Assembly (NCBI GenBank): GCA_030614005.1
Contig: JAUWKS010000002.1
Span: forward strand, 137,888-169,887
DNA from: Candidatus Heimdallarchaeota archaeon
Lineage (GTDB): Archaea > Asgardarchaeota > Heimdallarchaeia > JABLTI01
DNA length: 32,000 nucleotides
Direction: 5' to 3'
Shown here: piece by piece, positions 2,646-21,677 of the stretch
Numbering within the stretch: position 1 is the first letter of the stretch
Layout of the letters: each line of letters starts with the position of its first letter
The notes under the pieces: generated by a model
What the model saw: only the letters and a program-made list of their open reading frames with translations
Database searches by the model: none
What the model was told of the DNA's origin: nothing
Program-made: the position numbers and the translations under genes

Positions 2646-3027
2646 TCAAGCGGATTGCAGAAGGAGGAAATACAGTAAAAGTGGGAAACCAACACCAAAA
2701 GCAAGTAGGGATGCAAATGAAACAAAATATTTCACCCATTTCTTTGTTACTGTTCTTACATATCCGGCCGATCTTCTCGAGATAGAATATTTCCTAAATT
2801 GCCAATTTGTTAAAGGTGTTACCGGTGGATCATATTTCTTTCCTTGTGGTTTTTCTGTAATGCTTAGTAAATGATTCCAAGTTTTCACTTGTAAAATACA
2901 TCGATACTCTTCAAATGGGCTATAACCAAGTTCTTGGTCCTTCGTTTTGTTGTAGTATTTTTCCCCTTTCTTTTCTATTTCTGTGAATTCATGTCCGGGA
3001 GCTTCTATTGTTGACCGTTCCTTTTTT
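2646..3027 (-). pseudogene. 3' half of the host membrane-protein gene interrupted by the 3028-14168 element
   Basis: The frame of the 80-aa track ORF (2646-2888) stays open upstream to the TIR (KKERSTIEAPGHEFTEIEKKGEKYYNKTKDQELGYSPFEEYRCILQVKTW...). It has no ATG there and ends in a C-terminal TM helix. Confidence 0.75.
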
Positions 3028-3045
3028 TATGGACAAATAGGACAT
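3028..3045 (+). repeat. Left terminal inverted repeat TATGGACAAATAGGACAT
   Basis: Exact reverse complement of 14151-14168; contains GGACA twice, 9 bp apart. Confidence 0.9.
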
Positions 3046-3165
3046 TTATCCATCACCAGTCACCACAACAAGTCCAGAGGATTTGTTGCAGCTCATCTCT
3101 GAGCCCCCACTAGGAATAGTTGAGTGGAGGGTTCCCGAGTCCATGTAGGGCACGGGGCTAGTGTC
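3046..3165 (-). ncRNA. Candidate TnpB omegaRNA/reRNA scaffold overlapping the tnpB 3' end
   Basis: Three consecutive hairpins on the minus strand: CCUCCACU/AGUGGGGG (8 bp with a G-U pair), GCUCA-GAGA-UGAGC (GNRA loop), CAACAA-A-UCC-UCU-GGA-C-UUGUUG. The G-U pair and GNRA loop favour the minus strand. This is the known position of TnpB omegaRNAs. Ends are approximate. Confidence 0.65.
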
Positions 3166-4686
3166 TTTAAGACTTTTAATTTTAACATAATCTATGAAGC
3201 TTGCACGATAAATGTTCACAGAAGCATTATAGTCTCTGTCTGCAGTGAAACCGCATTCGGGGCAGTGGAAGAAGCGACCACATTTGTTCTCTAACAGATT
3301 GTTTGGTCCTTTCACTTTCAAGCCTTTTGCGCTGCATCTTGAGCAGTGACTGGAAGTATTCCAAGGACAAACTTTCACAAGTGTTAGCCCTTTTTGTCGG
3401 CACTTGTAGTCTAGGAGGAAGACTATTCTTCCTCTTAGCCAGTAGCTTAATTTTCTTGACCAGGATCTCTTTCCACGAGGAGGTTTGTAATCTCGCAGGT
3501 CTTCGATAGCGATTTTTGTGCACTGCCATTTTTGGGCAATTTCTATGAGCTTGTTTGTTGTATAATGAGCCAATTCTTCTCCTAAGCGATTTCTTTTTTG
3601 GTAGAGCTTGCTTCTCTCTTCTTCTCTTCGAGCGACTTTTATTTGCTTGCTTGGTCTTTTCTTTTTCTGCTTGGATAGTTGTCGTTGTATGCCGGCAATA
3701 TGCCCATATAGTCTTTCTATGTGCCTGTATTGTCCACCGATCATATTGATGAAAATTGGCTTGGAAATTTGTTTTCCATCCTCACAAACCACACATGTAG
3801 CCACTTTTTTCAAACCAGGATCTACTGCAAGCACTCGCTCTTTTCCTTCTTTTGGTATCGTTTCTCCTGGGTATTCCCATGGAAACTGTAAGAAGAAGTA
3901 TTCGAGCCCTGCTTTCAAGTTCTTGGTTCGCAAAGTAGGTTTTAATGGTTGAGGATATATTGCTTGTGCGATTTTTTCTTCTATTTTTTCGGGCACGAAC
4001 AGTGTTTGTTCTATCCAAACCCAATCGCTTCTCTTTTTTGGTTCCAAACTTGTTGGTAGCTTTATCTCTAGATTGATGGTTTGTTTTTCTACAGTATATT
4101 TTATTGCTTGGTCATCATCTGGTGCGTAAGGGAAAGTGTATCGTTTTATTTTTGGTTTCACAAAGTCTGTGTAAATGAAATTAGAAAATGCCTCTCCGAG
4201 TCTTTGGTGCAAATTCTTTATCATTTCTATTGTTTGCTCGATCATGACTTTCTTGTATCGGTAGTAAGTTTTTTCACCATTCTTTGCGGTATTTCTGCAG
4301 TGCTGTCTTACCACTGAAACCAATTTTTGTTCTGTTGTTTGTATCCCTAACCACTCGACTATTTGGATGCAATCATAGTAACAGCTCATGCGCTTATGTT
4401 GTCCTCTAATTATTCGTCCTACCCATTCTGTTACTCCTCTTAGTACCCTGGAGGGAAGATATACTCCTTCTGTTTTCGCTTGTGCTTCGTTGATTGCTTT
4501 GTATGCATTGAGTTTGCTTTCACCTATCCTTGTTATCCATTCTTCTGACCATATTTTATCGAGGAGGTCTTGAGCAGTTTTTGTCGTTAACTCTTTGAAC
4601 CAGTTTAATCTTTCATCTTGTGTCATTTTGAATTGGTAGCTATTGATTGGATTATTTTTGTTTCTCTTTTTCTTGTTGGAGGACAT
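3046..4686 (-). CDS. tnpB: TnpB/Cas12f-like RNA-guided endonuclease (IS200/IS605 OrfB family), 546 aa
   Basis: RuvC-I VLAVDPG (D289), RuvC-II IAIEDL (E395), Zn finger CSRC...CPEC, RuvC-III ADRDYNAS (D485). All three catalytic acidic residues are present. Confidence 0.92.
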   Translation of the reverse strand: MSSNKKKRNKNNPINSYQFKMTQDERLNWFKELTTKTAQDLLDKIWSEEWITRIGESKLNAYKAINEAQAKTEGVYLPSRVLRGVTEWVGRIIRGQHKRMSCYYDCIQIVEWLGIQTTEQKLVSVVRQHCRNTAKNGEKTYYRYKKVMIEQTIEMIKNLHQRLGEAFSNFIYTDFVKPKIKRYTFPYAPDDDQAIKYTVEKQTINLEIKLPTSLEPKKRSDWVWIEQTLFVPEKIEEKIAQAIYPQPLKPTLRTKNLKAGLEYFFLQFPWEYPGETIPKEGKERVLAVDPGLKKVATCVVCEDGKQISKPIFINMIGGQYRHIERLYGHIAGIQRQLSKQKKKRPSKQIKVARREEERSKLYQKRNRLGEELAHYTTNKLIEIAQKWQCTKIAIEDLRDYKPPRGKRSWSRKLSYWLRGRIVFLLDYKCRQKGLTLVKVCPWNTSSHCSRCSAKGLKVKGPNNLLENKCGRFFHCPECGFTADRDYNASVNIYRASFIDYVKIKSLKDTSPVPYMDSGTLHSTIPSGGSEMSCNKSSGLVVVTGDG

Positions 4687-4857
4687 TTTTTCTTCGCGTT
4701 TACTGTTGTTTAGCTAGATATAATTAAATTCTCTAAGGAGATTACCGAAAGTATTAGAGATTTGTTTAAAAGAATAGTTGAACGAATAGCTAAACGTACA
4801 GCTTTTCTAAGAGGTATTTAATAAAGGAAGTGGGAATAACCTTCTAGGAGAACAGCT

Positions 4858-6486
4858 ATGCAAGACTTTCTCAATTGGCGAACGGATCCATTACTAGTGG
4901 ATATTGAACCTGCCAGACCTAACCAATGGTTCACAGCAAATGAGTTAATAGAGGGAGATAGAAGAGATTCATTCATAACACCGGAAAATCAATTGCTTCT
5001 TTATCCAATCATGATCCGAAAAAACGATTTCATAACCGGGGAACGAATCTTGCAATCGTTTCCATATATTCTATTAGACACTAGAATAATTTCCAAATGT
5101 CGTAAACAATCTCTTGCATTAGCAGAAAAAACCCATTATTATTTTCAAGGCTCTAATTATAATCATTCTATTCGTGATTGGCAGAAAAAGTTCATCAGTT
5201 ATTTAGAAGAACAACAACGCCTGCCTTTTCCTCTATTTCGACTTTATGATGATTGGTTAGATTATATAAAAGAGAAAAAATTTGCTCGATTCCAATCTGC
5301 TCGAGGAGAGAATTTTCAATTACCACTTTATCTTTCCGAGGACTTGGCTTATCTTTCCGGTGTGGTTATGGGTGATGGTCATCTGGCGGAATATTTTGTT
5401 AATATCATTGATTCTTCAAAAGAGCACATTCTAAATTTAAAAGAAAAGCTTGAAGAGCAATTCAATTCCAAAACGGAATTTTTCAAACAACCAAACGCTA
5501 AAGCTTGGAATGTCAATATTCTAGGTAAATGGATCGTTCGCTTCTTTAACTTTATTTTATCACAACCAATTAAAGAGAGAAAATATCCTGCTCTTAGAGA
5601 ACCATTTATTTTTCGAGAGAATGAGTATTTTCGCAGTAGGTTTTGGTCAGGATTGATGGATGCAGATGGTACCTATAAAAGAGTTATTGGATTTAGTTCT
5701 GCATCCAAACAACTTCGATCTGACTTTTCTAATTACTTAGATGAAAACAATATAAAACATCGATTTTATGAGTATAGTGTTTTTGGTGGAACTACTTTTA
5801 GTATAACTATTGCAGGTCATTCAAGAAAGCCATTTGCTCAACAAATAGGTTCAAATCATCCAGATAAACAACAAGAACTGCAGTTACTATTACAGAAAAA
5901 AGTCTATCGATTTTCACCTCGAATTACTACTCTCAGAAAAAAAAACTCATGGAACGAGCAAGTTCAAGACTTTTCTAAAGATGCAATCCTTGATGGTTTT
6001 TTTAATCTTTCATTAATTACCACTCTACAAATTTTAGATTTAGGTAGTGATATAAAATCACTGCGAAAAAAGCACAAGGAAAAACAAAAAGAATTAGCTT
6101 CATATTTAGAGATTACCCCTAGTTTACTTTCAAAATATGAATTAAATAAAACAGCACTTCCAATTTATATTCTTAAAAAGATACTTTCAAAATACAATGT
6201 TTCATTTAATCACTTTTTTTCTCAATTAAGTAATTTAATTTTCCGTTCTACAAGTTCTAGTTGTCAGTTTCCATTAAAACCAGAAGAAAGGTTATTGACT
6301 TTAATTAGAGGATTACAAATTATGCCAGAAAATTATTTTCGAGTTATAGGATTGAGAGAAGTGTCAATTGAACATTATAAGAAAGAAATTAGTGATTATT
6401 TTAAAATTAATGAACCTATAACAGATGTTTTTCATAACGCTTGTTTAGTTGAATTGATTCGATCATTTTGCTTAATCCGAAATTAA
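4858..6486 (+). CDS. Stand-alone double-motif LAGLIDADG (DOD/intein-type) endonuclease with a C-terminal XRE-type HTH
   Basis: Motifs LAYLSGVVMGDGHL (~5344-5385) and FWSGLMDADGTY (~5641-5676). HTH IKSLRKKHKEKQKELASYLEITPSLLSKYELNK (~6055-6150). RBS AGGAGA upstream. No intein splicing termini recognised. Confidence 0.85.
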   Translation: MQDFLNWRTDPLLVDIEPARPNQWFTANELIEGDRRDSFITPENQLLLYPIMIRKNDFITGERILQSFPYILLDTRIISKCRKQSLALAEKTHYYFQGSNYNHSIRDWQKKFISYLEEQQRLPFPLFRLYDDWLDYIKEKKFARFQSARGENFQLPLYLSEDLAYLSGVVMGDGHLAEYFVNIIDSSKEHILNLKEKLEEQFNSKTEFFKQPNAKAWNVNILGKWIVRFFNFILSQPIKERKYPALREPFIFRENEYFRSRFWSGLMDADGTYKRVIGFSSASKQLRSDFSNYLDENNIKHRFYEYSVFGGTTFSITIAGHSRKPFAQQIGSNHPDKQQELQLLLQKKVYRFSPRITTLRKKNSWNEQVQDFSKDAILDGFFNLSLITTLQILDLGSDIKSLRKKHKEKQKELASYLEITPSLLSKYELNKTALPIYILKKILSKYNVSFNHFFSQLSNLIFRSTSSSCQFPLKPEERLLTLIRGLQIMPENYFRVIGLREVSIEHYKKEISDYFKINEPITDVFHNACLVELIRSFCLIRN

Positions 6487-6524
6487 AGTAATGTTTTGAT
6501 TCTAGACAAAAAAAAGTTAATAAT

Positions 6525-6593
6525 TCGCACTTTGGGGTGCGTTCGCATCGACGCTACTCATCGCTTACAGCGATTCCTCACGCGTCAGAGCGA
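6525..6593. other. GC-rich multi-hairpin intergenic segment (candidate ncRNA or cis element)
   Basis: About 58% GC by hand count, in AT-rich surroundings. Stems CGCAC/GTGCG (6526-6541), ATCGCT/AGCGAT (6560-6574), enclosing GACGC/GCGTC (6550-6586) and TCGC/GCGA. Confidence 0.5.
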
Positions 6594-6806
6594 TTTTCTA
6601 TTAGTTTTTTGTATAAAAAAGTCAAAAGTTTTGAAATACAGCTAATCAGAAAGGAATGTCATTATTTTTGACGTTTATAAATGAAATAGATTTTTGGGCT
6701 TTTTTAGTCATTTTTAAAGAAAATTGGCTAGTGTTTAATAGTTAAGGGTTAAATTTCAGGAAATTAGCAAAAAAGACTGAAAAAAGTGTTAAAATGAGGT
6801 TTTTCT

Positions 6807-9800
6807 ATGAGTAAAGCTGTTTCTTCCACAAAAAAACTTCCTCTTTGTCTTTCTATGGGTGTGACAGAGGTGCTAGAAGGAAGGGAGAGCATAACAGGTA
6901 AAGACCTTCTAGATTATTTTTCTTTACAGGATAAAACATCTTTTCTTACTAACACGAAAAATTTTGTTCTTGTTTGTGGAAATAAACAGAGACCAAATGA
7001 CTATGAGCCTAACAAATTCCTCGGCTCTTTTGGTGTTCGAAGAGCACTAGCAATGAAGAATTACACTCGATTGCCTGTAATTATTGTTACCAATAACCGT
7101 TTTGAAACTTCTATGCTTATTGAGCAGTTTAATAAACTAACTTCTTGTTTCAAACTATACACATCAAAGAAAAGTCAAAGAGAAAATATTAATGAAGAAA
7201 TTAAAGCGGACTACCCGAATGAAGCAGACTTTATACTGACAACATATAGCTCTTTCTGGGATCAAACAACAAACAAGGATGATCCATCTTCAGAACAAAT
7301 TATCTTAATCAATCCATTAAGACTAAAATATATCATCGAGGATGTAGGCAAATTAGATGTCATTTTTGGCTGTATACATAGGCATAAGCGAATAAGACCG
7401 AATTATTCCTTCATTCTTGATGAAGCACACTACCCAATTCTATCAAAGAAAGATTATCAATTCTTATTTAAAGCAGGCAATAGTCTTTTCTTTAGATGCA
7501 AAGAGAGAATGCTTTTAGAATATAATAATCCATTCAGAGAAGCTATTTCTCACCTAACTAGTGATCAATTCCAGCTATTTATTTTCACAGATCTTTTTAG
7601 GGGAAGAAAACTGATAAAAGAACTGGTTAAAGAGTTCAAATCAACTTTTACTTATAAAATGTACCTCTACAGTAATGGTATTTTTCCAACAATTGATGAA
7701 AAATTGCCTTCAAAAGAACTTCTTAAAGAAAAGAATAGGCTTGATAAGAAAGTTTTAAGTGGAATTGTAAAACAAATACATTTATTCACAAAAGGAAGCA
7801 ACACCAAAACGATAACAGGAAAAGTAACTTACAGCGATTTTGATTTTAACGTTGGCCTCAGTAAACAAGAGATATCTCGAACGTATTCCTGGGATAAACC
7901 AAAAGAAGCAGCAAGATTCCTTCCGGTAGTCACTAAGGAAGAAGGAAGATTCAAACTTAGCGCTCTAGGAGAAGAAATATTTGGTGTGTCATCATGGTTT
8001 AGTGGTGTTGAGGACAATTTTAGCGAACTTTTAGCTCACTTTTCTAGGATCCTTTACAAAAACAAGAAGGAAAACCACAAATTTTCCGTGAAAGAGATAA
8101 TCATTTTTTATCTTCAAATGATAGATTGCAATTATGAAACAGTGAAAAGATTTGAGGAGGCAATTCCTGAAAAGTTAGACACAGAAAAAAAGAATGACCA
8201 AATGATCGCAATCCTTGAAAAGAAATTCAAGCCACTAGTTAAAAATTTCAAAAGAGTTTCAGCAAAAAAAATCCTTGGTGCTTTTGAAAAATTAATGAAT
8301 ACTGAAGCATACATTTTCTATCAACAATTCAAGAATTATAAGAAAGAAGAGAAACGTTCCTGGGAAGAGAGAAGGAGAAAAGCGGTCCTAAGAAAAGCAA
8401 ATTATCAGCCCTTAGCTGTGAAATTCACAGGTGATTATTATCACATGTTTTGGCAAGACGCCAAGAAGTTATTGGAAGAATTAGTTGAAGAAGGGCGACT
8501 TGTCAGGATTATTTCTTACAATGGTAGAGGAAAACCGATACTAAAGTACCTTACTCAAGAATTACTGGATGCGAACCCTCATTTCCAAAAGAATTGCGGG
8601 AACTGTCAATGGTACAATCAACGCTTCAAAACATGCACCTTTTTACGTTTAAAACAAGCGAAAAACCCGAGTACAATGACAAAAGAAGAATTTGAATATG
8701 CTAATGATACACTAAGATTTGAAGCAACTGCTTGTGAGAAGTACATAGAAAAAGATGATTTTCAGTCGATGGAAGGCAATGTTAAGTTCACTGCTACCGT
8801 TGAGAAGTTAACTAAAGATATGAAGAATATATCAATGAGCTTTTTATCAGGAGATATTGCAGAGTACAAGTATCATTGTCTTTCTTGCCAGGAACAAATA
8901 GAAGAATTTGGTACAGGTGATAGAATCTTCTTTCCAAGGAGAAGAATTATTTGTCCTAACTGTTCGACAGTTTATCTTCAACTAAAAGATCGGAAAAAAG
9001 TAAAAGTGAAAATGGAGGAAAGAGATCATCAAAGAAGCTTATACTTCAAAGAAACTGGGACCATTACTGACGTTTTGAGGAAGAAAGATTCTGCTCGTGT
9101 TTTTGTCATACATGACATAGATAGTGCTAGATTAAGAATCAACGAAGAAAATGATGAGCCACCTTATTTTCTAGTGATAGGTAAAAATGAAATAGCTCTG
9201 GATTTGGTGCAGTTTGTCTATTTTTCAGGTATACGTCATCAAGAATTAGAAGAAACAATGTGGTTACTAGCGGACCTTGATTCTGAAAGATACAAATACA
9301 AAATTAAGCGAACAGAACAAAAGTCAAAGAAGAAAAAAGCAAAAAGTCGATATAAAAGACCCTTTTCAGCTGAAGACTATTCCAATATCATAAAAATAAT
9401 CAAAAAAAGCTCCGATAAAGAAATATTCAACCATCAATTTTTGGAAGCAAGGCTTATCTCAAATATTGCTGGAATGTTATCAATAAAATATGAAATAGAA
9501 ATGGAAAGCTTCTCTGACTGGCATTACAATCACCAATTGTTGGAAATGGTTGATTTGCATATGAAAGTAATTGGCGGAGAAGTAAAGTCAAGCTATTATG
9601 GAACTCAATTAGAAGCACTTAGCAACAAGCACTTTTTTGACTTTTTGAAGGGAGAAGCTGCGAGAGTAGGTCTCTGGTCAAAAGGGCGAGTGAATAGCAG
9701 GCTAGTGATAGATATGCTTAAATCCTTCAGCCAAAAGGTTAGTAGTGCTTTTTCACCTTTAGATGCTTTACTGAATCAAATGTTGCGCTCATTCAGAGTA

Positions 9801-10985
9801 GAATTAGATCCGTTGTTTCACAGGATGGGCATGGATCCTGCAATGTTAGGTCCAGGTTTGTTTCATAGACGAAAAACAAAATCTGATATTGACCAGCTAG
9901 GTTTTTACTTCGACTTAATAGAAGCTGTGCGAGTTCTAGTGCTTGTAACTATTGTTAAAGCTATTCGAGATGGCACCCTCGGTTTTGATGATTGTAAATA
10001 CGTACTAGGTGAGGATGGACAAGAGATCTATCAAGTGAAAGGTTCTTCCCTGGATAAATTCACCAATCTGGTTTCAGAAGCTCTTGAACAAACCGTTTCA
10101 CATCAAGGGCAAAGAATGACTTTTAAACAAGCTTTTGAATTCAATCTTTTGTGCTTAAGAGTTGCTTTTGAAAAATGTCTTTCAGAGATAGAAGAACATA
10201 AACAAATTACTTTGAAAAAAATCAAGAAGTGTTTTGATGATTCACTTTTTATTTCATTTACTTTCTGCCCTGAAGGACTAGAAGAGAAGTTAATAGATTT
10301 AAATCGATTTGCAAGTAAAGAAGGAGTAATTTTCTTTGGAAAAGAACAAGAAGTTTTGGAACGAAAAGAAACAAGAGAAAAATATAGAAAAGAAGTAAAG
10401 AGTCATTGGTACAACGAAAATGTGATTAAAAAGCTAAATGCTTTTCGGTTGACCAAACATCAAATTAAAGAGCAAGATAGAAGTTTGCTTGTTATTTTGT
10501 TGTTATTGTACAATACTTTTGAAAGAGATTTTACAATTGATGAATACTCAACTAATCATTTTAAGGAATTACTTGGAATAACTCAAAACCAAGTACAGAG
10601 ATTACTTGATCAAATGGTTTCCAGTGGATTGCTTCTTCGAGAGAAAGTAAATAGAAAGAATTTCTACGAGTTAAATCTTAAAAATCTAAATGTTAAGGAC
10701 TTTCGTTTTCTTCTTGGAGTAAATCTCTCTTTAGAGGAACATCTTCAAAGAGAGTTTATCATCAATATTCCTCCTCATTTAGAGCGAGTTGAAAAGATTA
10801 TTTCTCAAATCAAATTGCTTCCTACTAATCAACAAAAAGTCATAAGAAGTAATTTTTGGTTTGATTGGGAACCAACAGAAATTATTCGAAGAGTAATTGT
10901 TTGGGCAGAAGAGAAAGCTGTAACTAGTAAAGCATTTTTCAAAATGATAGGTGATATTCATGGTAAAAAGCAGTTACATTTTTAA
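6807..10985 (+). CDS. cas1: Giant multidomain Cas1-like integrase (casposase-like): degenerate SF2-helicase-like domain, Zn fingers, Cas1, wHTH; 1392 aa
   Basis: Cas1 beta-domain pattern from ~aa 763 (RVFVIHD...IALDLVQFVYFSG). Helical domain with LEA (E936), SPLDALLNQM, MGMDPAMLGPGLFH (H1020), LGFYFDLIEAVR (D1036/E1039). wHTH ~aa 1245-1291. N-terminal VIIVTNNR, FILTTYSSF, ILDEAH (D205). Cys motifs CGNC (597), CLSC (691), CPNC (716). Confidence 0.8.
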   Translation: MSKAVSSTKKLPLCLSMGVTEVLEGRESITGKDLLDYFSLQDKTSFLTNTKNFVLVCGNKQRPNDYEPNKFLGSFGVRRALAMKNYTRLPVIIVTNNRFETSMLIEQFNKLTSCFKLYTSKKSQRENINEEIKADYPNEADFILTTYSSFWDQTTNKDDPSSEQIILINPLRLKYIIEDVGKLDVIFGCIHRHKRIRPNYSFILDEAHYPILSKKDYQFLFKAGNSLFFRCKERMLLEYNNPFREAISHLTSDQFQLFIFTDLFRGRKLIKELVKEFKSTFTYKMYLYSNGIFPTIDEKLPSKELLKEKNRLDKKVLSGIVKQIHLFTKGSNTKTITGKVTYSDFDFNVGLSKQEISRTYSWDKPKEAARFLPVVTKEEGRFKLSALGEEIFGVSSWFSGVEDNFSELLAHFSRILYKNKKENHKFSVKEIIIFYLQMIDCNYETVKRFEEAIPEKLDTEKKNDQMIAILEKKFKPLVKNFKRVSAKKILGAFEKLMNTEAYIFYQQFKNYKKEEKRSWEERRRKAVLRKANYQPLAVKFTGDYYHMFWQDAKKLLEELVEEGRLVRIISYNGRGKPILKYLTQELLDANPHFQKNCGNCQWYNQRFKTCTFLRLKQAKNPSTMTKEEFEYANDTLRFEATACEKYIEKDDFQSMEGNVKFTATVEKLTKDMKNISMSFLSGDIAEYKYHCLSCQEQIEEFGTGDRIFFPRRRIICPNCSTVYLQLKDRKKVKVKMEERDHQRSLYFKETGTITDVLRKKDSARVFVIHDIDSARLRINEENDEPPYFLVIGKNEIALDLVQFVYFSGIRHQELEETMWLLADLDSERYKYKIKRTEQKSKKKKAKSRYKRPFSAEDYSNIIKIIKKSSDKEIFNHQFLEARLISNIAGMLSIKYEIEMESFSDWHYNHQLLEMVDLHMKVIGGEVKSSYYGTQLEALSNKHFFDFLKGEAARVGLWSKGRVNSRLVIDMLKSFSQKVSSAFSPLDALLNQMLRSFRVELDPLFHRMGMDPAMLGPGLFHRRKTKSDIDQLGFYFDLIEAVRVLVLVTIVKAIRDGTLGFDDCKYVLGEDGQEIYQVKGSSLDKFTNLVSEALEQTVSHQGQRMTFKQAFEFNLLCLRVAFEKCLSEIEEHKQITLKKIKKCFDDSLFISFTFCPEGLEEKLIDLNRFASKEGVIFFGKEQEVLERKETREKYRKEVKSHWYNENVIKKLNAFRLTKHQIKEQDRSLLVILLLLYNTFERDFTIDEYSTNHFKELLGITQNQVQRLLDQMVSSGLLLREKVNRKNFYELNLKNLNVKDFRFLLGVNLSLEEHLQREFIINIPPHLERVEKIISQIKLLPTNQQKVIRSNFWFDWEPTEIIRRVIVWAEEKAVTSKAFFKMIGDIHGKKQLHF

Positions 10986-13900
10986 CAAGAAAGAAATCTT
11001 CCCGATTAATCCTGGTAAACCCCGAAAATGGATCACTATTCATAACCTTCCTGCTACTGAACCAAGGAAAATAACTGGTCTCACATGGCAAGAAGTACTA
11101 CCTGGTTATGCTCAAGCTTTAGCAGAAGTGATCGAAGAAATAACTGGTAGTAAGAACCCCTATGAGCACCAAGAACAAGCAATAAAGCATTTATTGAATA
11201 ATTCTGCTAATAAGAAATGCCTGGACCTCATAATTAAAGGTGGAACTTATTCAGGAAAATCACTATCTTTCATCGTTCCTGGTATCATCAAGCAAATAAA
11301 TGAGGAAACGGATTTTACAGTCATTTTTTACCCTTCGAAACAATTACTCCTAGACCAATTTGAAAGAGTGAAAGAGTATTTGGTGAAATTCGAGGAAAAA
11401 ACAGGCATCAGATTAATTTGTGAAAAGTACAGTGGAGATACTGGAAATACTAATTACTCTAAAGGGGTAGCTCGTGTAAATGATCAAGAGCTGAATAATT
11501 TAGAACAGAACCCGCCGAATGTCTTGCTTGCCACTTTTGACAAATTTTGGCATCATTATGAGAGTGGGAACAGCAGTCCGTTAATAAAGAAAATAGCATC
11601 TGCAAATTATCTTGTTTTTGATGAGATACATGCATTTGACGGTTACGCTGCAGGTAACATTAAGGGCTTTATTGCTATTCACAAGAAAGCTAATCCTCAG
11701 GGGCAATTTATACTTTCCTCTGCTACTATAGCTAATGTTGAAGGATTCAGAGACGATTTCTTGCCTAATGCTAAAATAATTACTTGCCCACCAGTGAGAG
11801 GAGAACAAGTGTATGTTGGCACAACAATTGAACACACAGTTTCACTGCTTGCAGATTTCTGGAAAGAAATGGAAAAAATGCCAGGAAAAACCGGTCTTGT
11901 TTTCCTTGATTCGAAAGAAAACATCGAATTATTAACAGACCTACTCTGTAGGAAACTCAAGCAGGATGACCCTTTCTTTGATCCTGACACTGTGCAGATG
12001 ATCCACGCAGATTTGGAATATTATCATCGTAAAAGAGTGCAAGATGAGCTTCGAAAAGGAAATAGAAATATTATTAGAATTCTCATCTCTTCCTCAGTCT
12101 TGGAGCTTGGTGTAAATATCCCTAACATTCAAACAGTATTTAATATTGGCATTCCGATAACACAGAAAGATGGTATTATTCAAAGGATGGCTCGCAATCG
12201 CTCTGTTCCCGGTGAAAGAAGAACGAATGTTTTTCTGTTCGACCTTTCTAAGAAACGTGACAGTTTTTACTGGAACAATAAGGAAATCCTCAAGGACATT
12301 CTTGAAACGAATGCTTGTAACCCTATTCTTTATCCCAAACTTAACCCGAAGATATTGGCGGGGCAAATTATCTTGCACCTTAGATACGGTATTAATGACT
12401 TTGGAGAGATAATGCAATTCTTCCTTGATCAAGGACCACAAGTTTATCGCTTAGCAAGACAACAATACACTAAACTTGTTAGTTTAAATGTCCTGAAAAA
12501 AAGCAGCGATGGTAAAGTTCTCTTCACAAGCCAAGGAGAAAAAAAGCTAAAAGTGCAAGCAAAAAAGAAAAATCATCTTGTTCCGTTCTCCATACGAGCT
12601 ATTAAAAATAATTGGTCTATTAAGAAAAAATTTGGAGAAAGTTCTTACTGGCATGAAAATAGAAAATCTAGTCTTGGTAAGATCTCTACCAAGGATGTTT
12701 TAAAGAAAGGATTGCCTGACAATATTATTACTCGTAACAAAAAACAGTATCTTGTTACGGATAAAGATCAGCAATTAAGAACTATTTACGTTAAAGAATT
12801 ACTTTCTAAAGAAAAAAGTGCTGGAAATTTTTCCGGAATAACTAATCGTTTACTTGACCCTCAGATAACTCCTGGTGTTTTCTCTAAGAAAGTTAAAGGA
12901 ACAAAAATAGTTGACATTAGTTTTGGTCAAGTTTCAATTAAGCAACAACCTTTAGCTATTGTTAACTCTAATCCCGAAAAAATTAGTTCTAATAATACTC
13001 ATGTAAAGGATAACAAGAACTTTTTTTGGCAAGAATTAACCCCAAAACGCTCGGAAGAATTGGCTAATACTGAAAAGTCAGATGGATTAGCCATTACATT
13101 AACTTCTGATATTCCAAAACCAAAAGAACTTACAACTAAGAAATTACTAGAATATTTTGGGCGCGTCCTACAAGTTGAGATTGAAACCGTTCTTTCAATT
13201 CCAGGTAGTGAATTCGCACTTGCGATTAATACTAATCAATTAGCAATTTATGATAAAGGAGACCCAAATGGAAACTCAGAGTATTTGTTTAGTCATTTAC
13301 AAAAAGTCGCTGCTCGAACGCTCAAAAGATTGACAGATTGTTCTTGTGAAAATGGTTGCAAAAATTGTTATGGTGAAATTCTTGGCTTATTTCCTAAAGG
13401 AGTAAAAGAATCACTAAAAATACTTTTCAAGGATTTAACGCTGATTTCTGAAGTGGAGTTTGATGATGAATTGTTGCATGAAATCAATCCTGAGCAAATG
13501 AATTTCAAAGAAAACAGAATTATTGCTTTTTCAGATATTCATCTTACAAACAAGCTTTGTTTCCAGGAAGAATTTTTCGAAGCGCTCAAAGAGCAGAGTA
13601 AACAAGCTGATATTATCATCATCAATGGTGATTTATTAGATACTATTTCAGAAGATAGTTATCAGGCTTTTAGTGAATTCAAAAGCATGGCTATACGTGA
13701 AGGTTTTTGGTCGAAACTAGTTCTGATACGCAGTTCTTCTATTCATGACGGCAATCTTGAGCAATTCACAGGTTTCCTCCATCAAGATTATGTTGAAGTT
13801 GAGATCGGTTCTGAACAAGTATTATTCGTCCACGGAAATAGGATCGGCATAAATCCTAGTTTAGTAGATAAAACAAGTATAGGAAAAGCTGTCTTTGAAG

Positions 13901-14127
13901 CAAAAAAGGCTTTAATAAAGCCGGGCAAGATTTGGCTTCCTGTTATTCTCCCTGAAACTCATCTTGTTATTGGCCATGTTCATCTCCGATTTTATAATGA
14001 ACGCTTTCGAGTTTATGGTTCTGGTCACTGGACAAAAAAAGGTGACCCTTACAATCAACGATGCATGATAATTCTTGACCCTAATTCTTTAGATGTGCCA
14101 AAAATCGTTTCATTTGATAACTATTAG
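10951..14127 (+). CDS. DEAD/DEAH-box (YprA/Hrq1/SftH-like) helicase + DUF1998 Zn domain + calcineurin-like metallophosphoesterase
   Basis: Q motif PYEHQEQA, Walker A GGTYSGKS, YPSKQLLLDQ, DEIH, SAT, SSVLELGVNI. DUF1998-type IYD..PNG...CSCENGCKNC. C-terminal SDIH, NGDLLD, FVHG, GHVH. Likely start is ATG 10960 after a GGTGA RBS, overlapping the cas1 stop. Confidence 0.88.
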   Translation: MIFMVKSSYIFNKKEIFPINPGKPRKWITIHNLPATEPRKITGLTWQEVLPGYAQALAEVIEEITGSKNPYEHQEQAIKHLLNNSANKKCLDLIIKGGTYSGKSLSFIVPGIIKQINEETDFTVIFYPSKQLLLDQFERVKEYLVKFEEKTGIRLICEKYSGDTGNTNYSKGVARVNDQELNNLEQNPPNVLLATFDKFWHHYESGNSSPLIKKIASANYLVFDEIHAFDGYAAGNIKGFIAIHKKANPQGQFILSSATIANVEGFRDDFLPNAKIITCPPVRGEQVYVGTTIEHTVSLLADFWKEMEKMPGKTGLVFLDSKENIELLTDLLCRKLKQDDPFFDPDTVQMIHADLEYYHRKRVQDELRKGNRNIIRILISSSVLELGVNIPNIQTVFNIGIPITQKDGIIQRMARNRSVPGERRTNVFLFDLSKKRDSFYWNNKEILKDILETNACNPILYPKLNPKILAGQIILHLRYGINDFGEIMQFFLDQGPQVYRLARQQYTKLVSLNVLKKSSDGKVLFTSQGEKKLKVQAKKKNHLVPFSIRAIKNNWSIKKKFGESSYWHENRKSSLGKISTKDVLKKGLPDNIITRNKKQYLVTDKDQQLRTIYVKELLSKEKSAGNFSGITNRLLDPQITPGVFSKKVKGTKIVDISFGQVSIKQQPLAIVNSNPEKISSNNTHVKDNKNFFWQELTPKRSEELANTEKSDGLAITLTSDIPKPKELTTKKLLEYFGRVLQVEIETVLSIPGSEFALAINTNQLAIYDKGDPNGNSEYLFSHLQKVAARTLKRLTDCSCENGCKNCYGEILGLFPKGVKESLKILFKDLTLISEVEFDDELLHEINPEQMNFKENRIIAFSDIHLTNKLCFQEEFFEALKEQSKQADIIIINGDLLDTISEDSYQAFSEFKSMAIREGFWSKLVLIRSSSIHDGNLEQFTGFLHQDYVEVEIGSEQVLFVHGNRIGINPSLVDKTSIGKAVFEAKKALIKPGKIWLPVILPETHLVIGHVHLRFYNERFRVYGSGHWTKKGDPYNQRCMIILDPNSLDVPKIVSFDNY

Positions 14128-14150
14128 TAACTTTTTTTCACATTTATCTT

Positions 14151-14168
14151 ATGTCCTATTTGTCCATA
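14151..14168 (+). repeat. Right terminal inverted repeat ATGTCCTATTTGTCCATA
   Basis: Exact reverse complement of 3028-3045. Confidence 0.9.
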
Positions 14169-14319
14169 TTTTGTGGCAACAGTTGACACCCTTAATTATA
14201 TCACTTGTTTTCAGAACAGAATAATTTCTTCGTTCCATACCTGTTAATTTCAAGCCGGTTAGAAAAGCAATTAACCCTAGAGTAGGTCCGATGAACACAA
14301 TAATAGCTATTACATTCAT
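14169..14319 (-). pseudogene. 5' half of the host membrane-protein gene interrupted by the element
   Basis: MNVIAIIVFIGPTLGLIAFLTGLK...KGVNCCHK (ATG 14319, N-terminal TM helix) reads into the TIR (IWTNRT) and stops at 14149, just inside the element. Confidence 0.72.
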
Positions 14320-14434
14320 AGTTTCCACGACAAAACTCAACTCTGTAGTGATTAGGATGTTATTTCTACTATTTGAATTATGCCACAAATTACTTGCAGT
14401 CTATATTTGCTATTTTTGACTTTATTCAGTTACT

Positions 14435-17577: not shown

Positions 17578-18717
17578 CTATGCTTCAAGCCTTCTCGTCT
17601 TCGAGGTGGTTGTCCTCTCAGAGAGAGCAGTATCATGGTCAGTGAAGGAAAGCATCTCAGCATCCATAGCAGTATCAAGTTCTTCTCTTCTACTTGCCGA
17701 TAATGAGATAATTTCATTATGTATTACTAATTTTCCATTATAAAAGTCATTTATTGCTAAATTTACCATTAACAAAAGATGATTTTTCAAGTAATTTTTT
17801 CCATACTGGAAGGATTCTACTATCCTTTCAAGATTATCTGAAAGAAGGAGATAATTATAAAGTTTTAGATGATTAACTTGATTCACTTCAATATCTTTTT
17901 TTAATTGCTGAAAGTCAATCTTCCCTTTTGACTTGTCATAGCGAAAGGTTGTCTGGTATGGCTTCTTTCGAGTGATGTAAGAGGCAAGTCTATCGTAATA
18001 CTGCACTATTGGTAGGAGCATATTGGTACTTCCTTCTCCATTGTGGTGGTTTAGACAAGCTTCTCTAACTTCTTCATCTACGATGTCTATCTGTTGGAAA
18101 ATTTTACTGTTGTGTTTCTCTGTGTGAACAAAATCGTGTAGCATGAGAGCAATAAGCAATCTTTGTAATTCCTCAGGGTAATCTGCTCGTAAACCAGCTC
18201 GAATTTTGAATTTCTTATACTGCCATGTTTGATTACAAGAAGTACATCGTTTGCGTTTAGAATTTTTATCATAGATTGTTGTTGAATTCTTGCATTGAGG
18301 ACATTTCTCAGATAAAGGAACGGTTACAGTAGGATCTGTTTTTGTAAAATGCTTGATTTCACATGATTCCCAAAGGACTCTACCATACCCTTCAGCAGTC
18401 TTTGGACCCAAGAATGATTTCTGGAGAAATGGTTCTATTTTCCTCTTTAGCTGTTCTTCTGAAAACCCCACACAACTGATTGTAACAAATCCTCGGAACC
18501 CATGTAAGACCGTAGGATACTGATTCTTGCCATAGACCAATTTACCTATAGTTGAAAAGAGAGGTTTAGTTTCCTTCTTTGGATCTCCGACCACTTTTAC
18601 CAAACACCCGTGCTTCCAATATGTTGATTGAGAAACGACAATTGGATTCACCAACCGACCCACGAGTGTAGCAATTTTCTTTTGTTTTATTTGTATGTTT
18701 TCCATGCGTCTAAACAT
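17578..18717 (-). CDS. Cas5-like RAMP fused to a Zn ribbon and a Cas10-type (circularly permuted) HD nuclease
   Basis: RAMP Gly loop FLGPKTAEGYGRV; CPQC...CTSC; HD motifs LMLHDF, CLNHH, YYDRLAS, and a downstream LKNHLLLMVNLA. Overlaps the cas7 stop. The Cas5 versus other RAMP subfamily assignment is inferred from size and position. Confidence 0.7.
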   Translation of the reverse strand: MFRRMENIQIKQKKIATLVGRLVNPIVVSQSTYWKHGCLVKVVGDPKKETKPLFSTIGKLVYGKNQYPTVLHGFRGFVTISCVGFSEEQLKRKIEPFLQKSFLGPKTAEGYGRVLWESCEIKHFTKTDPTVTVPLSEKCPQCKNSTTIYDKNSKRKRCTSCNQTWQYKKFKIRAGLRADYPEELQRLLIALMLHDFVHTEKHNSKIFQQIDIVDEEVREACLNHHNGEGSTNMLLPIVQYYDRLASYITRKKPYQTTFRYDKSKGKIDFQQLKKDIEVNQVNHLKLYNYLLLSDNLERIVESFQYGKNYLKNHLLLMVNLAINDFYNGKLVIHNEIISLSASRREELDTAMDAEMLSFTDHDTALSERTTTSKTRRLEA

Positions 18718-19631
18718 TCCTGTAATAGTTGATTTTGATATGTAGTTCTTTCTTCCTCAATGATAGCTAATTTCCCATCACCATTTTCTTGCCCTAATTT
18801 TCTCTCGAAAACTATCTTCTCATACGAAACATTTTTTATCTCAAGACGACCATACCCACTATTTTCTCCTCGACCAAGATACTTTAAAGAAAAAATTCCA
18901 TCAATAAGTAGCCCAAGTAACCATTGTGGGAGAGATTCTGAAAATTCAACATAGAATTGAAACTCTCCACTGAAATATTGTTCACTAAAATCTTGCAAGA
19001 CTTTTCCATCTCTTCGTGAAGCATGACGATTCTCAGTAGAAACATGAACAAATGAAAGGCCTTTTTGAGCAGTGATTTTATTAGAAGGTTTATCGGTTTG
19101 TACGAGAGCATCAGTCCATACTCTTATAGGGGACTTCTCACCAAGCATACCAAATAACTGTCTTACAGGGCATGGGTTCTCTCCACATTTACCCATAAGA
19201 TGCTCGTTGATTAGTAAGGTTGGTTCATTGTTTCCTTGAAATCTCTCTTTCATAGTAGGAGAGCAATATTCAATTCCTCTGTTATGTAGAATCTCCATGA
19301 TACTATGTCTAATTGCACCACGAACGCCTTTAACCATCCGAGAGCTTCCAAGTTCTTCTTTAAGAGTAAAGACTTGAATTTTAGCGTCGTTTTCCTTTCC
19401 TTCTGCTTTAACTTTTAGCTCGTTAAAATCATCAAGAATCAAATCTTTGTTGGTTAAGAGGAATTCCTCTAATTCTGAAACCTTAACATTTGTTCTACCT
19501 TGAAATTGATAGGGAACGTCTCCCCCTTTCATAAGAAAGGAACTTTTACCGCTACTTCCATTAAGCGTTTTCGTAAACCAAGCATATACCTTAACTGTTA
19601 AACGATTGAAAGTGTGTGTCATAATCATCAT
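18687..19631 (-). CDS. cas7: Cas7-group RAMP (Csm3-like)
   Basis: KGVRGAIRH (cf. SLKGALR), C...CGENPCPVRQLFG, thumb STENRHASRRDG, Gly loop LGRGENSGYGRL. KGGDVPY lies at about the position of the Csm3 GGxD catalytic loop. Confidence 0.82.
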   Translation of the reverse strand: MMIMTHTFNRLTVKVYAWFTKTLNGSSGKSSFLMKGGDVPYQFQGRTNVKVSELEEFLLTNKDLILDDFNELKVKAEGKENDAKIQVFTLKEELGSSRMVKGVRGAIRHSIMEILHNRGIEYCSPTMKERFQGNNEPTLLINEHLMGKCGENPCPVRQLFGMLGEKSPIRVWTDALVQTDKPSNKITAQKGLSFVHVSTENRHASRRDGKVLQDFSEQYFSGEFQFYVEFSESLPQWLLGLLIDGIFSLKYLGRGENSGYGRLEIKNVSYEKIVFERKLGQENGDGKLAIIEEERTTYQNQLLQECLDAWKTYK

Positions 19632-19727
19632 ATAACATTAATGATTCATTACTTTTAAAGGTTTCTAATTAGTATTTTTAAAGAATGTTTATATTGCCGT
19701 ATTCAGTAATTCTAATTTGTGGTAAAA
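19632..19727. promoter_or_regulatory. Divergent promoter region between cas7 and the AbrB-like gene
   Basis: 96-bp AT-rich gap between head-to-head ATGs, with TATA-like boxes (TTTAAA twice, TTTATA). Confidence 0.45.
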
Positions 19728-19898
19728 ATGAGCGAAGAAATACCAAAAATAGTATGGAAAAGGAAAGTAATCTACAATTCTGGTTCATTTCGAATATCAT
19801 TGCCGATAGAAATAGCTGATGCTTTTGATATTCAAAAGGGACAACTACTACAACTGTCTGTTGAAGGAAAACGGATTATCGTCGAACTAATTGATTGA
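19728..19898 (+). CDS. AbrB/MazE/SpoVT-family DNA-binding protein (56 aa; missing from the ORF track)
   Basis: Translated by hand: MSEEIPKIVWKRKVIYNSGSFRISLPIEIADAFDIQKGQLLQLSVEGKRIIVELID*. Matches the swapped-hairpin pattern (RKV...S..I.LP.E.A..L.I..G..L......IIV). Confidence 0.85.
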   Translation: MSEEIPKIVWKRKVIYNSGSFRISLPIEIADAFDIQKGQLLQLSVEGKRIIVELID

Positions 19899-19934
19899 AA
19901 TTTTTAGCCATATTAATTTAATTATTCAATAATC

Positions 19935-20004
19935 TCCCATGTGGAGCGTCGTTTATCACCGTAGGGGATAAACAGCGACTGCATGAGTCTGCTCCGAGCA
20001 AGGA
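19935..20004. other. GC-rich structured intergenic segment (candidate ncRNA, oriT or terminator)
   Basis: Stem GTCG-TTTATC...GATAAA-CAG-CGAC (19948-19979), flanking CATG/CATG, and GGAGC (19943-47) complementary to GCTCC (19991-95). Confidence 0.5.
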
Positions 20005-20054
20005 CATTGAAAGAAAATAACAACTATCTAATAATAGTTAAATCAAAAAGGGAT

Positions 20055-21677
20055 CTAATTCTTTCCAAGTAATTCCTTCGCTAAACACGGTCGTAACTCT
20101 GGCTTAGATTCCCAAATTTCTTTTATCTCAGACGGGGACTTCTTAACGGTTTCTTCTGCTAAAGTTGTCCGCTTATCACACTCAGCCAGAGTGATCTCTT
20201 TTGCACACAGAGAGCATTTCTCAGCAAACGTTATCAATAACTCTCGTTCTTCTTGAGTTATATTCTTAACATCAAATGTTAATACAACAATTGCTTTTTT
20301 TAATCTACTTGTATCTTGCACTGTTTCTGTTGGTTCTTGCTTTCCTACTGAACTAATCTGTTTGTATTCCATTTCTTTAAATTCATCTAATATCACCAGT
20401 GCTAAAAATTGTTGTAATTCAGTTTCTTTCTTCCAGACTTTGGGGATGTTTTCAATCCATTGAGTGTTTTCCTCTTCTGTTATTCCTAACAGGCTTTTAG
20501 CTATACTTCTCTTATCAACAATCTCTTCTGGTGAAAGTTTAGCATAATCTATTGTTGCAGCTACTATCTCAAAAATCTGTTTTGCTTCATCTATCGTCTC
20601 ACTATCGGACAGAGGATAATGAGTCATTGTCTCTTGAGGTACTTGTTTATCCGGTTCTTCTTCCTTTTCATCTTGTAGTAATTTTAATCCCATTCGCTTT
20701 TTCTCTTCGAGTGTCTTTTTATCGACTTGGAAAATCTCTCCGTAATACCTGAAGAATACCTCCAGACCATCAATTTGATCAAACTTGCTTAAAGCTGTTA
20801 GTTCTCGTATCAAATGACAGATTGAACATAACAAGAACTTATCCATTAGCTCAGGTGTTAATTCCCATTTCGTATATTTTCTAAGATATAGCTTTACTAT
20901 ATGTCGAAGTTCTTTGATATTGTATATTCGATCGTGTAAACACTCCGCTGTAAAATCATGTTTATCAGTAGTAGAACAAACTTTCTGTATAATTTTAGTC
21001 AATTTAGGATCTCCTTCAAGATTTTTCATAAAATCAAAAAACAAAACTTCCGGGGGTTCGGTTTCCATCACTATATCTTCCTCCTCCTCCTGTGAGAATG
21101 CTTCACCTATCTCAAAAGAATCATCATCAAAAGCAGTTTCAACTGTTTCGGGAGAACTCTCCTCGATTCTAATTAAATCCGTTTTTTTATTATTCCATCT
21201 CTTATTGATCCGTTCTTCATAATCTTGGATAGTTGCATTATTTGCATCAATATTCATCAAATAATAATAAACTAATAACAAGTTAGTGAGCAATGATTTT
21301 ATTTTTGATATACCTACTTTTTTCTTTTCTCTCTCTTTGAGTATCTTCTTGCATCCAAGAACACAAAAGGTCAATATCCTAACTGAATTTTTCTTATGTG
21401 TTTTGTAGAATGTTAATCCCTCTTCTGTTCTACGCAGGTGTTTTATTATCTTACTCTCTATTACACTAATCGTTTCATCAATCAAGGTTTTGTTTAGTTC
21501 TCTATCACCGGTCTTTCCCTTGATGAATTGGCTGAGAATGATATTTTCCTCGGATACGTCCTCGATAATTGCTGACCAATCTTGCATCATACATATTGGA
21601 AAGTGGTCAATTGCTCTTGGACATGGAGCTTTGAATAACTCTTGGTAGGCTTTCTCAGTCTTGGAAATATTCTTCAT
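20055..21677 (-). CDS. Hypothetical helical protein (540 aa)
   Basis: The track ORF starts at 21749, but ATG 21677 (MKNISK) has a GGAGG RBS and overlaps the ATPase stop by 23 nt. Acidic linker DDDSFEIGEAFSQEEEED. No family recognised. Confidence 0.75.
   Translation of the reverse strand: MKNISKTEKAYQELFKAPCPRAIDHFPICMMQDWSAIIEDVSEENIILSQFIKGKTGDRELNKTLIDETISVIESKIIKHLRRTEEGLTFYKTHKKNSVRILTFCVLGCKKILKEREKKKVGISKIKSLLTNLLLVYYYLMNIDANNATIQDYEERINKRWNNKKTDLIRIEESSPETVETAFDDDSFEIGEAFSQEEEEDIVMETEPPEVLFFDFMKNLEGDPKLTKIIQKVCSTTDKHDFTAECLHDRIYNIKELRHIVKLYLRKYTKWELTPELMDKFLLCSICHLIRELTALSKFDQIDGLEVFFRYYGEIFQVDKKTLEEKKRMGLKLLQDEKEEEPDKQVPQETMTHYPLSDSETIDEAKQIFEIVAATIDYAKLSPEEIVDKRSIAKSLLGITEEENTQWIENIPKVWKKETELQQFLALVILDEFKEMEYKQISSVGKQEPTETVQDTSRLKKAIVVLTFDVKNITQEERELLITFAEKCSLCAKEITLAECDKRTTLAEETVKKSPSEIKEIWESKPELRPCLAKELLGKN

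Follow-up and report, generated by a model that had tools for sequence, protein, structure and literature searches.

What moves an 11-kb block of archaeal DNA that encodes both a Cas1-family protein and a TnpB nuclease, and is the block a single element? The question is raised by a 32,000-nt stretch of contig JAUWKS010000002.1, from a Heimdallarchaeia genome (Candidatus Heimdallarchaeota archaeon) of cold-seep/marine sediment; the whole stretch is called the window here, and all coordinates without a contig or locus name refer to it. The original prediction described an 11,141-bp block (3028 to 14168), bounded by simple 18-bp terminal inverted repeats and inserted into a host gene, as a casposon-like, non-self-synthesizing transposon mobilized by Cas1 and carrying an RNA-guided nuclease. 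Our analysis leaves little doubt that the block is a mobile element of the Asgard aCas1-TnpB family. That it is an intact and recently active transposon of this family, operating by the mechanism proposed below, is a reading that we favor with moderate confidence. The kind is already known from computation, and the locus is an unusually well-resolved new copy, with defined ends, empty sites, and miniature inverted-repeat transposable elements (MITEs). The genome of the window is designated G000, and G072 is a related sister genome; L009, L010, L011, L015, L032, L033, L036, L037, and L040 are loci in other genomes.

Four intact open reading frames (ORFs) occupy the block, and the last two overlap by 35 nt. 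The genes and their associated features are as follows (HTH, helix-turn-helix; wHTH, winged HTH; SF2, superfamily 2).

3046 to 4686, minus strand: tnpB (ORF1), 546 aa; NCBIfam guided_TnpB at 1.6e-31, Pfam Cas12f1-like_TNB and OrfB_IS605, and PDB matches to Cas12f and TnpB
3014 to 3200, minus strand: conserved structured region from the tnpB 3' end through the right end (RE) of the element, retained by MITEs; candidate omegaRNA scaffold
4687 to 4857, no strand: divergent intergenic region between tnpB and the three-gene operon, seen in the ORF map; putative promoter region
4858 to 6486, plus strand: LAGLIDADG-HTH protein (ORF2), WhiA/meganuclease-like, 542 aa; Pfam LAGLIDADG_3 at 1.5e-7 and HTH_3 at 6.9e-9
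6807 to 10985, plus strand: aCas1 fusion (ORF3), 1392 aa; SF2-helicase-like N-terminal half, wHTH, two Cys4 ribbons, Cas1 fold, and C-terminal wHTH
9132 to 10271, plus strand: Cas1-fold domain of ORF3 (residues ~776 to 1155) in the predicted structure, with invariant E936, H1020, D1036, and E1039
10951 to 14127, plus strand: SF2 helicase plus phosphoesterase (ORF4), 1058 aa; Pfam DEAD at 7e-17, Helicase_C at 2e-12, MZB at 2e-6, and Metallophos at 3e-4

The limits of the element were determined from its repeats. The 18-mer TATGGACAAATAGGACAT is present in exactly two copies in the window, at 3028 to 3045 (plus strand) and 14151 to 14168 (minus strand), and these form the predicted perfect inverted repeat around the four packed genes; the window holds no third copy even at ≤3 mismatches (shuffle expectation, 0.05 matches). 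About 25 copies occur in the 3.6-Mb G000, mostly less than 300 bp from contig ends, and they fall into two classes: RE copies, with ACCGTTCCTTTTTT outside and the tnpB 3' end inside, and left-end (LE) copies, with AGGGCTTCAACTGCTGTCATGAAA outside. Among these copies, conservation continues outward of the 18-mer for 14 bp on the tnpB side (ACCGTTCCTTTTTT), which sets the RE limit at 3014, and for ~19 to 24 bp on the LE side (LE to 14187 plus a flanking GGGT to 14191/2). Because the flanks are unrelated beyond 14 bp and ~24 bp, the 18-mer is subterminal and forms the inner core of asymmetric ends. Since the ends reach past it on both sides, the unit spans ~3014 to 14187 (~11,174 bp), and the view of the 18-mers as simple terminal repeats of an 11,141-bp block has to be given up. 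The block is slightly higher in G+C than its surroundings. The ends and the sequences that adjoin them are as follows.

3014 to 3045, minus strand: RE, proximal to tnpB; 14-bp outer segment (tnpB-sense ...AAAAAAAGGAACGGT) plus the 18-bp core at 3028 to 3045
14151 to 14187, minus strand: LE; 18-bp core at 14151 to 14168 plus a 19-bp outer segment (tnpB-sense GTCAACTGTTGCCACAAAA)
14188 to 14192, minus strand: target motif AGGGT, resembling a target-adjacent motif (TAM), directly 5' of the LE on the tnpB-sense strand
2646 to 3013, minus strand: C-terminal fragment of a host membrane-protein gene, aligning to an intact ORF in G072 (L015, 2451 to 3299)
14193 to 14320, minus strand: N-terminal fragment of the host membrane-protein gene, aligning to the intact ORF in G072

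The RE is conserved in 10 copies in G000 and in L009, L032, and L033; it terminates in a conserved T followed by variable flank, and in the window the divergence begins directly outside 3014. The LE matches those of L009, L036, L040, and L037 and of the MITEs, and the joint of a contig from metagenome X5, described below, puts the boundary at 14187|14188.

Insertion into a host gene, as had been proposed, was confirmed with G072. Contig C17 of that genome carries an intact 283-codon open frame (an ~265-aa gene) whose parts match window positions 14320 to 14193 and 3013 to 2646, with the window flanks 313 bp apart (C17 ~8222 to 8534). The frame runs continuously across both flanks, so the interruption is real. 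A MITE between the flanks in G072 was considered and ruled out, as the intervening sequence is host coding sequence. About 300 bp (~100 codons) of the host gene, present in G072, are missing from the window where that gene adjoins the LE. The element-free X5 contig lacks the same ~100 codons, and thus the deletion may predate the insertion or may stem from recombination between two insertions.

Copies elsewhere were then compared with the window element. The same four genes lie between unrelated neighbors in three other Heimdall genomes (aCas1 identity of 78% in L009, 54% in L010, and 44% in L011), and a relative at 37% aCas1 identity is without tnpB. In L009, which occupies another locus in G072, the identical 18-mer brackets the four genes, the ends form an imperfect inverted repeat of 33/34 bp whose outer segments are those of the window element, and the sequence interior to the window LE is also shared. 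The L009 site is empty in G000, where contig C99 has both L009 flanks ~50 bp apart. An additional inverted repeat outside the L009 ends (I5) was dismissed as host sequence, since it is present in the empty site too. The helicase-phosphoesterase gene of L009 (14154 to 17324) is called as two ORFs (440 and 572 aa), and this copy may be decaying; the window copy of the gene is intact. The search for ends at L010 gave a weak 21-nt imperfect repeat, and that at L011 gave none.

Short derivatives of the element are numerous. Complete short copies (on contigs C5 and C124) are ~325-bp MITEs consisting of the LE, ~105 bp, the last ~150 bp of tnpB, and the RE. At least 12 MITEs are present in G000, where the only intact tnpB of the window's type is the window copy itself. 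Two of the MITE sites in G000 are empty in G072; the MITE flank on C1 had no usable ortholog there. A scan of species-representative genomes recovered the exact 18-mer in three other Heimdall metagenome-assembled genomes (MAGs), in the form of one full element, one internally deleted copy without aCas1, an ~390-bp MITE, and solo or tandem LE ends. L036 (G072 contig JABCTZ010000045.1, 5675 to 7806) consists of an LE followed by helicase residues 629 to 1058 joined directly to LAGLIDADG-HTH residues 1 to 259, without aCas1. In L040, two LE-like ends stand in tandem (7740 to 7757 and 7895 to 7912), 155 bp apart in the same orientation, with GGGGT before each. Outside Heimdallarchaeota, the exact 18-mer turned up six times, in five bacterial genomes and in one Micrarchaeota MAG; this is compatible with chance (~17 expected in 596 Gb), and these matches were set aside.

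The contigs of four metagenomes, three cold-seep runs and X5 from another study, were compared with the region. In the three cold-seep runs, the region is covered like single-copy DNA. One X5 contig joins 3020 to 14188, skipping 11,167 bp (3021 to 14187) and leaving 7 nt of the RE (single contig, depth 2.8), and a second exits the LE at 14191 into a different flank (single contig, depth 2 to 3). Two further contig joints (8700 to 5400 and 3814 to 9474) have higher depth and tiny matched parts; they were rejected as apparent chance matches to other organisms. Contigs of the cold-seep runs at 3 to 10 times the local depth touch the window at ~5400 to 5417 and ~8680 to 8700, with 22 unrelated letters between; their probable source is a paralog or another organism that matches by chance. 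The empty allele that the original prediction called for is provided by the intact host gene in G072 and by the X5 joint, and the other copies that it called for are provided by L009 and a further full copy in another MAG. These copies at other loci, four empty sites, the MITEs, and the element-free contig establish a discrete mobile element.

The aCas1 family is confined to one genus of its class (8 of 10 genomes), where it is patchy, is multicopy in some genomes, and frequently carries internal stops. A second four-gene subfamily is present in G000 at 40 to 59% identity, with one full copy (C63:33696-44784) and fragments on C8, C29, C48, C18, C86, and C15; the location of the fragments at contig ends suggests several copies. 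In the C63 copy, tnpB is codirectional with the operon and the aCas1 gene has three internal stops. In the window, tnpB lies 2.1 kb from the aCas1 gene on the opposite strand, and a tnpB-aCas1 pairing is likewise found in L009, L010, L011, and C63.

The occupied and empty sites allowed the junctions to be read, here on the tnpB-sense strand. The four empty sites are AGGGT|TAACTC, AGGGT|CTACAA, AAGGT|TGGTAA, and TGGGT|TAACC; an empty-site sequence reads AAGGGT + CAACAATAG..., and occupied sites read ...GGG(T/C)|LE...RE, with the RE ending GGAACGGT|flank. In the four occupied/empty comparisons, only GG(T)(T), 0 to 4 bp, is common to both junctions; this leaves the position of the cut uncertain by a few bases, and no long duplication is seen. 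GGGT, GGGC, or GGAC stands outside the LE in 13 of 13 LE ends in G000 and in L009, L036, L037, L040, and the X5 copy, and L033 has GGAGT. Overall, RGGT/GGGY lies outside nearly every LE seen (>20 insertions), and RGGT was present beforehand in the four empty sites. An insertion 3' of RGGT/GGGY that duplicates no more than 4 bp matches what is seen for IS200/605-type elements and TnpB TAMs; it does not match casposons, in which the target-site duplication is 14 to 15 bp (PMC9939771). On this point the casposon-like label does not hold.

What the gene products contribute was assessed from their motifs and domains. The TnpB protein has an intact RuvC triad (D289, E395, and D485) and a CxxC...CxxC zinc finger (CSRC and CPEC), in agreement with the proposed RNA-guided nuclease. 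Next to its gene, ~170 nt before the end of the RE is conserved between full elements and MITEs and contains helices with compensatory changes, among them an 8-bp stem that is CCCCCACU/AGUGGGGG in one form and CCUUCACC/GGUGAGGG in another (alifold energy, -41). No Rfam match was obtained in the window at gathering thresholds. The RE-proximal structure fits a candidate omegaRNA scaffold, from which a guide would be read out of the RE flank.

The ORF2 protein resembles WhiA and single-chain LAGLIDADG meganucleases with a C-terminal HTH in having two LAGLIDADG motifs plus HTH_3. WhiA has lost both of the LAGLIDADG acidic residues. In contrast, ORF2 retains both acidic motifs (VMGDGH at 172 and MDADG at 268) and belongs to a multicopy family tied to aCas1 modules. 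About 14 LAGLIDADG-HTH paralogs are found in G000 at 32 to 67% identity, including C9:124392-125786 and C9:127798-129093 (upstream of the window) and others on C41, C67, C78, C110, and C122. The paralog on C110 has as neighbors a helicase-phosphoesterase that is more distant and a short piece resembling aCas1; together they may form a third related module. The ORF4 protein contains the SF2 motifs DEIH and SAT, an MZB/DUF1998 zinc domain, and a calcineurin/Mre11-type phosphoesterase; its best PADLOC match is SngC at 1.8e-16. As predicted, Pfam, NCBIfam, and PADLOC scans of the four ORFs detected no PolB and no DDE, Y1, serine, or tyrosine recombinase, and with no polymerase found, the description as non-self-synthesizing stands.

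The Cas1 identity of the 1392-aa protein could not be seen with sequence libraries. The protein and five of its subsegments had no Cas1 match in Pfam, NCBIfam, or PADLOC, even at E values up to 10; phmmer and family-profile searches of PDB sequences returned only noise, a search of the ESM Atlas by features returned no usable match, and P0050 had no PDB sequence match. Eighteen full-length homologs (32 to 78% identity) were collected, and all informative source names are Candidatus Heimdallarchaeota. Residues 735 to 1185 were modeled by AlphaFold2 with a 17-sequence alignment (predicted local distance difference test [pLDDT] score, 76). In a Foldseek search of the PDB, the top match of this model was the Methanosarcina casposase 6opm (E value, 1.7e-8), and 49 of the 49 matches at E values of ≤1e-3 are Cas1. 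VIA-align gave a Z score of 20.2 to Archaeoglobus fulgidus Cas1 (4n06_A) over 288 residues; ~40 Cas1 entries scored at least 8.8, and the next fold scored 5.6. E936, H1020, D1036, and E1039, set in LEAL, GLFH, and FDLIE motifs, are invariant across 17 sequences. The family profile matched just 35 proteins among 1.84 billion representatives; one of these weakly matches Pfam Cas_Cas1, and hhalign aligned it to the family profile with 94% probability and with the E/H/D positions aligned. Judged from the predicted structure, the protein contains a diverged Cas1 fold with intact catalytic-type residues. With Cas1 visible through the fold and one weak profile bridge, the term "Cas1 fusion" is correct even though sequence libraries miss it. 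The model of the N-terminal half (pLDDT score, 67) resembles the SF2 helicases Ski2, Brr2, Hel308, and XPB (E values of ~1e-4 to 1e-3), and structure search of that half found no DDE, Y1, serine, or tyrosine recombinase fold. A conventional transposase fold, which the original prediction had named as a point to check, was found neither in the folded halves of the 1392-aa protein nor, by domain scans, in the 1058-aa protein.

Does aCas1 then move the element? No Y1_Tnp, Resolvase, or canonical Cas1 was detected in the 90%-complete G000, and control genomes were positive. Across divergence to 44% identity, and despite the inversion of tnpB in the C63 subfamily, the four genes remain associated. 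Because the genome offers no rival enzyme and the four genes are kept together, the aCas1 fusion is the best candidate for the transposase. So short a junction overlap departs from known Cas1 chemistry and keeps our confidence in this assignment, which is reached by elimination and conservation, only somewhat above even. The predicted Cas1-mobilized transposon is upheld in its Cas1 fold, and Cas1 is the candidate mobilizing enzyme.

Three other accounts of the locus were weighed. The block could be a resident gene island, a defense or repair operon with a domesticated TnpB, lying between two independent MITE or solo ends. The abundance of the 18-mer, mostly as MITE ends, is consistent with this, as are the sequence just inside the window LE, which is unlike the interior of MITE LEs, and the ~300-bp host-gene deletion that adjoins it. 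However, the same genes, LE, RE, and LE-interior sequence recur at the unrelated G072 locus, and further full or deleted copies with the same ends exist in other MAGs; because of the clean C99 empty site for L009 and the X5 joint, which skips exactly 3021 to 14187, a gene island is largely refuted and now very improbable. A true casposon relative, either self-synthesizing or using a casposase mechanism with a long staggered cut, would account for the inverted terminal repeats and for the casposase as the top Foldseek match of the Cas1 domain. By Z score, though, CRISPR Cas1s match as well as the casposase or better. Moreover, neither the library scans of the ORFs nor the models of the two halves of the 1392-aa protein show PolB or another polymerase, and the duplication does not exceed 4 bp in any of the four comparisons, so that we give this account the least credence of all.

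The most serious competitor is an IS200/605-type TnpB element moving by single-strand peel-and-paste, in which the transposase is not Cas1 and is instead an unrecognized enzyme of the element, such as the LAGLIDADG-HTH protein or the helicase-phosphoesterase, or one supplied in trans, and the aCas1 operon is cargo for defense or DNA repair. It would explain the asymmetric ends with possible subterminal hairpins, the insertion 3' of a fixed short motif with 0 to 4 bp duplicated, and the tnpB gene with an omegaRNA-like region at the RE; weak PADLOC matches of the helicase to the defense systems SngC, DruE, and BrxH, aCas1/LAGLIDADG modules elsewhere without TnpB, and the LE kept by the internally deleted L036 also suit cargo. 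Yet the genome encodes no Y1_Tnp or Resolvase, cohesion of four genes to 44% identity and through the tnpB inversion is unusual for cargo, the catalytic-type residues of aCas1 are invariant in 17 sequences, and to our knowledge neither LAGLIDADG enzymes nor SF2 helicase-nucleases act as transposases. We regard this competitor as unlikely. Several observations nevertheless count against the favored reading of an aCas1-driven element. Known Cas1 and casposase integrations duplicate 14 to 15 bp or a whole CRISPR repeat, compared with 0 to 4 bp here, and the ends have the IS200/605 character just noted, including the fixed 5' target motif. The aCas1 plus LAGLIDADG-HTH modules without TnpB in G000 could point to a role other than transposition. 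The structure predictions cover the 1392-aa protein, and a cryptic recombinase may reside in the C-terminal region of the helicase protein or the N terminus of the LAGLIDADG protein. Matching inverted ends were looked for around the C63 copy (33.7 to 44.8 kb) and none were found, the X5 joint is a single contig at depth 2.8, and a transposase role for Cas1 that is argued from elimination and conservation is probable at best.

For an aCas1-driven element, the following mechanism is proposed. The 1392-aa fusion would bind the core repeat at both ends and join the 3'-OH ends of the element to the target. The LAGLIDADG-HTH and helicase-MZB-phosphoesterase proteins would serve as conserved accessory factors, in cleavage of ends or target and in unwinding or processing of DNA. 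TnpB would be loaded with an omegaRNA whose scaffold is the tnpB 3' end plus the RE and whose guide comes from the RE flank. In IS200/605 elements, TnpB cuts the vacated donor site, and the element is restored by homologous repair. By analogy, TnpB here may cut the vacated site (RGGT plus flank), with restoration of the element by the same route. The MITEs would be mobilized in trans while carrying their own omegaRNA scaffold. A bolder form of this model is that a Cas1-family enzyme transposes unlike casposases and CRISPR integrases, being directed by RGGT, producing almost no staggered duplication, and acting alongside a LAGLIDADG nuclease and a helicase-nuclease; that RGGT is also the TAM for the element's own TnpB/omegaRNA; and that the omegaRNA-bearing MITEs are trans-mobilized satellites. 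We offer it tentatively, at well under even chances. If true, it would mean that a Cas1 integrase and a Cas12 ancestor still work together today within a single mobile unit.

How new is the element as a kind? Asgard aCas1-TnpB transposons were reportedly predicted by Makarova et al. in 2020 (CRISPR J 3:156). The accessible text of Altae-Tran et al. 2023 (PMC10691335), which cites Makarova et al. 2020 on Asgard aCas1-TnpB, describes aCas1-associated TnpBs in two Asgard groups (Cas1H-Asgard-1 and -2), flanked by repeats, as a likely transposon family with aCas1 as the proposed transposase. Koonin and Makarova 2022 (PMC8730458) also note Asgard Cas1 homologs with a possible tie to novel mobile elements. 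Because of the loci described in that accessible text of PMC10691335, the kind counts as known, and the architecture is not new as such. Shared with those loci are the Asgard host, an extremely diverged Cas1 by tnpB, and flanking repeats (here an 18-bp core and 33/34-bp imperfect ends); the same text does not confirm that the published groups contain the 1390-aa fusion family, the LAGLIDADG-HTH protein, or the helicase-phosphoesterase. Beyond what it contains, the exact ends, the RGGT target, the near absence of duplication, the MITEs, and the empty sites are added here. It also reports, for aCas1-TnpB loci, a hypervariable region that follows tnpB and has a conserved T and a GTTCACTCA motif as its limits. 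No GTTCACTCA-like motif was found near tnpB at 2900 to 3050, and the motif may characterize the other published group without defining the kind. The searchable literature yielded no experimental study of Asgard aCas1-TnpB elements.

The element was also compared with better-known systems. With casposons (families 1 to 4), it shares a Cas1-family integrase, terminal inverted repeats, and archaeal hosts; it differs in the missing PolB, a duplication of 0 to 4 bp versus 14 to 15 bp, asymmetric ends, a giant multidomain Cas1 fusion, and TnpB. With the IS200/IS605 and IS607 OMEGA elements (TnpA, TnpB, and omegaRNA), it shares tnpB at the RE, a predicted structured RNA region running into the end, asymmetric ends, insertion 3' of a short fixed motif without long duplication, and short nonautonomous derivatives that keep the ends; in contrast to them, neither the element nor the genome has a Y1 or serine TnpA, and the element is 11 kb long with three further conserved genes and an 18-bp inverted core. 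As in type V CRISPR-Cas systems (Cas1 plus Cas12), a Cas1-family protein is encoded with a TnpB/Cas12-family RuvC nuclease, but the element has no CRISPR array, Cas2, or Cas4, and the unit is itself mobile.

The locus offers four intact genes, ends defined within a few bases, a target motif, natural mini-elements of ~325 bp, and both empty and occupied alleles. With it, two questions can be put to direct test: transposition by a Cas1-family protein that has neither a polymerase nor the long staggered cut usual in that family, and TnpB homing with a partner other than TnpA. Both bear on the origin of CRISPR adaptation and type V effector modules from mobile elements. The junctions are a mechanistic puzzle for a Cas1-family enzyme.

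Just downstream of the element, the window encodes on the minus strand (17578 to 24561) a RAMP-superfamily protein (18687 to 19631), two unannotated proteins (379 and 564 aa), and a 968-aa HerA/DUF87-type ATPase, which may constitute an array-less RAMP (ARAMP-like) or defense locus.

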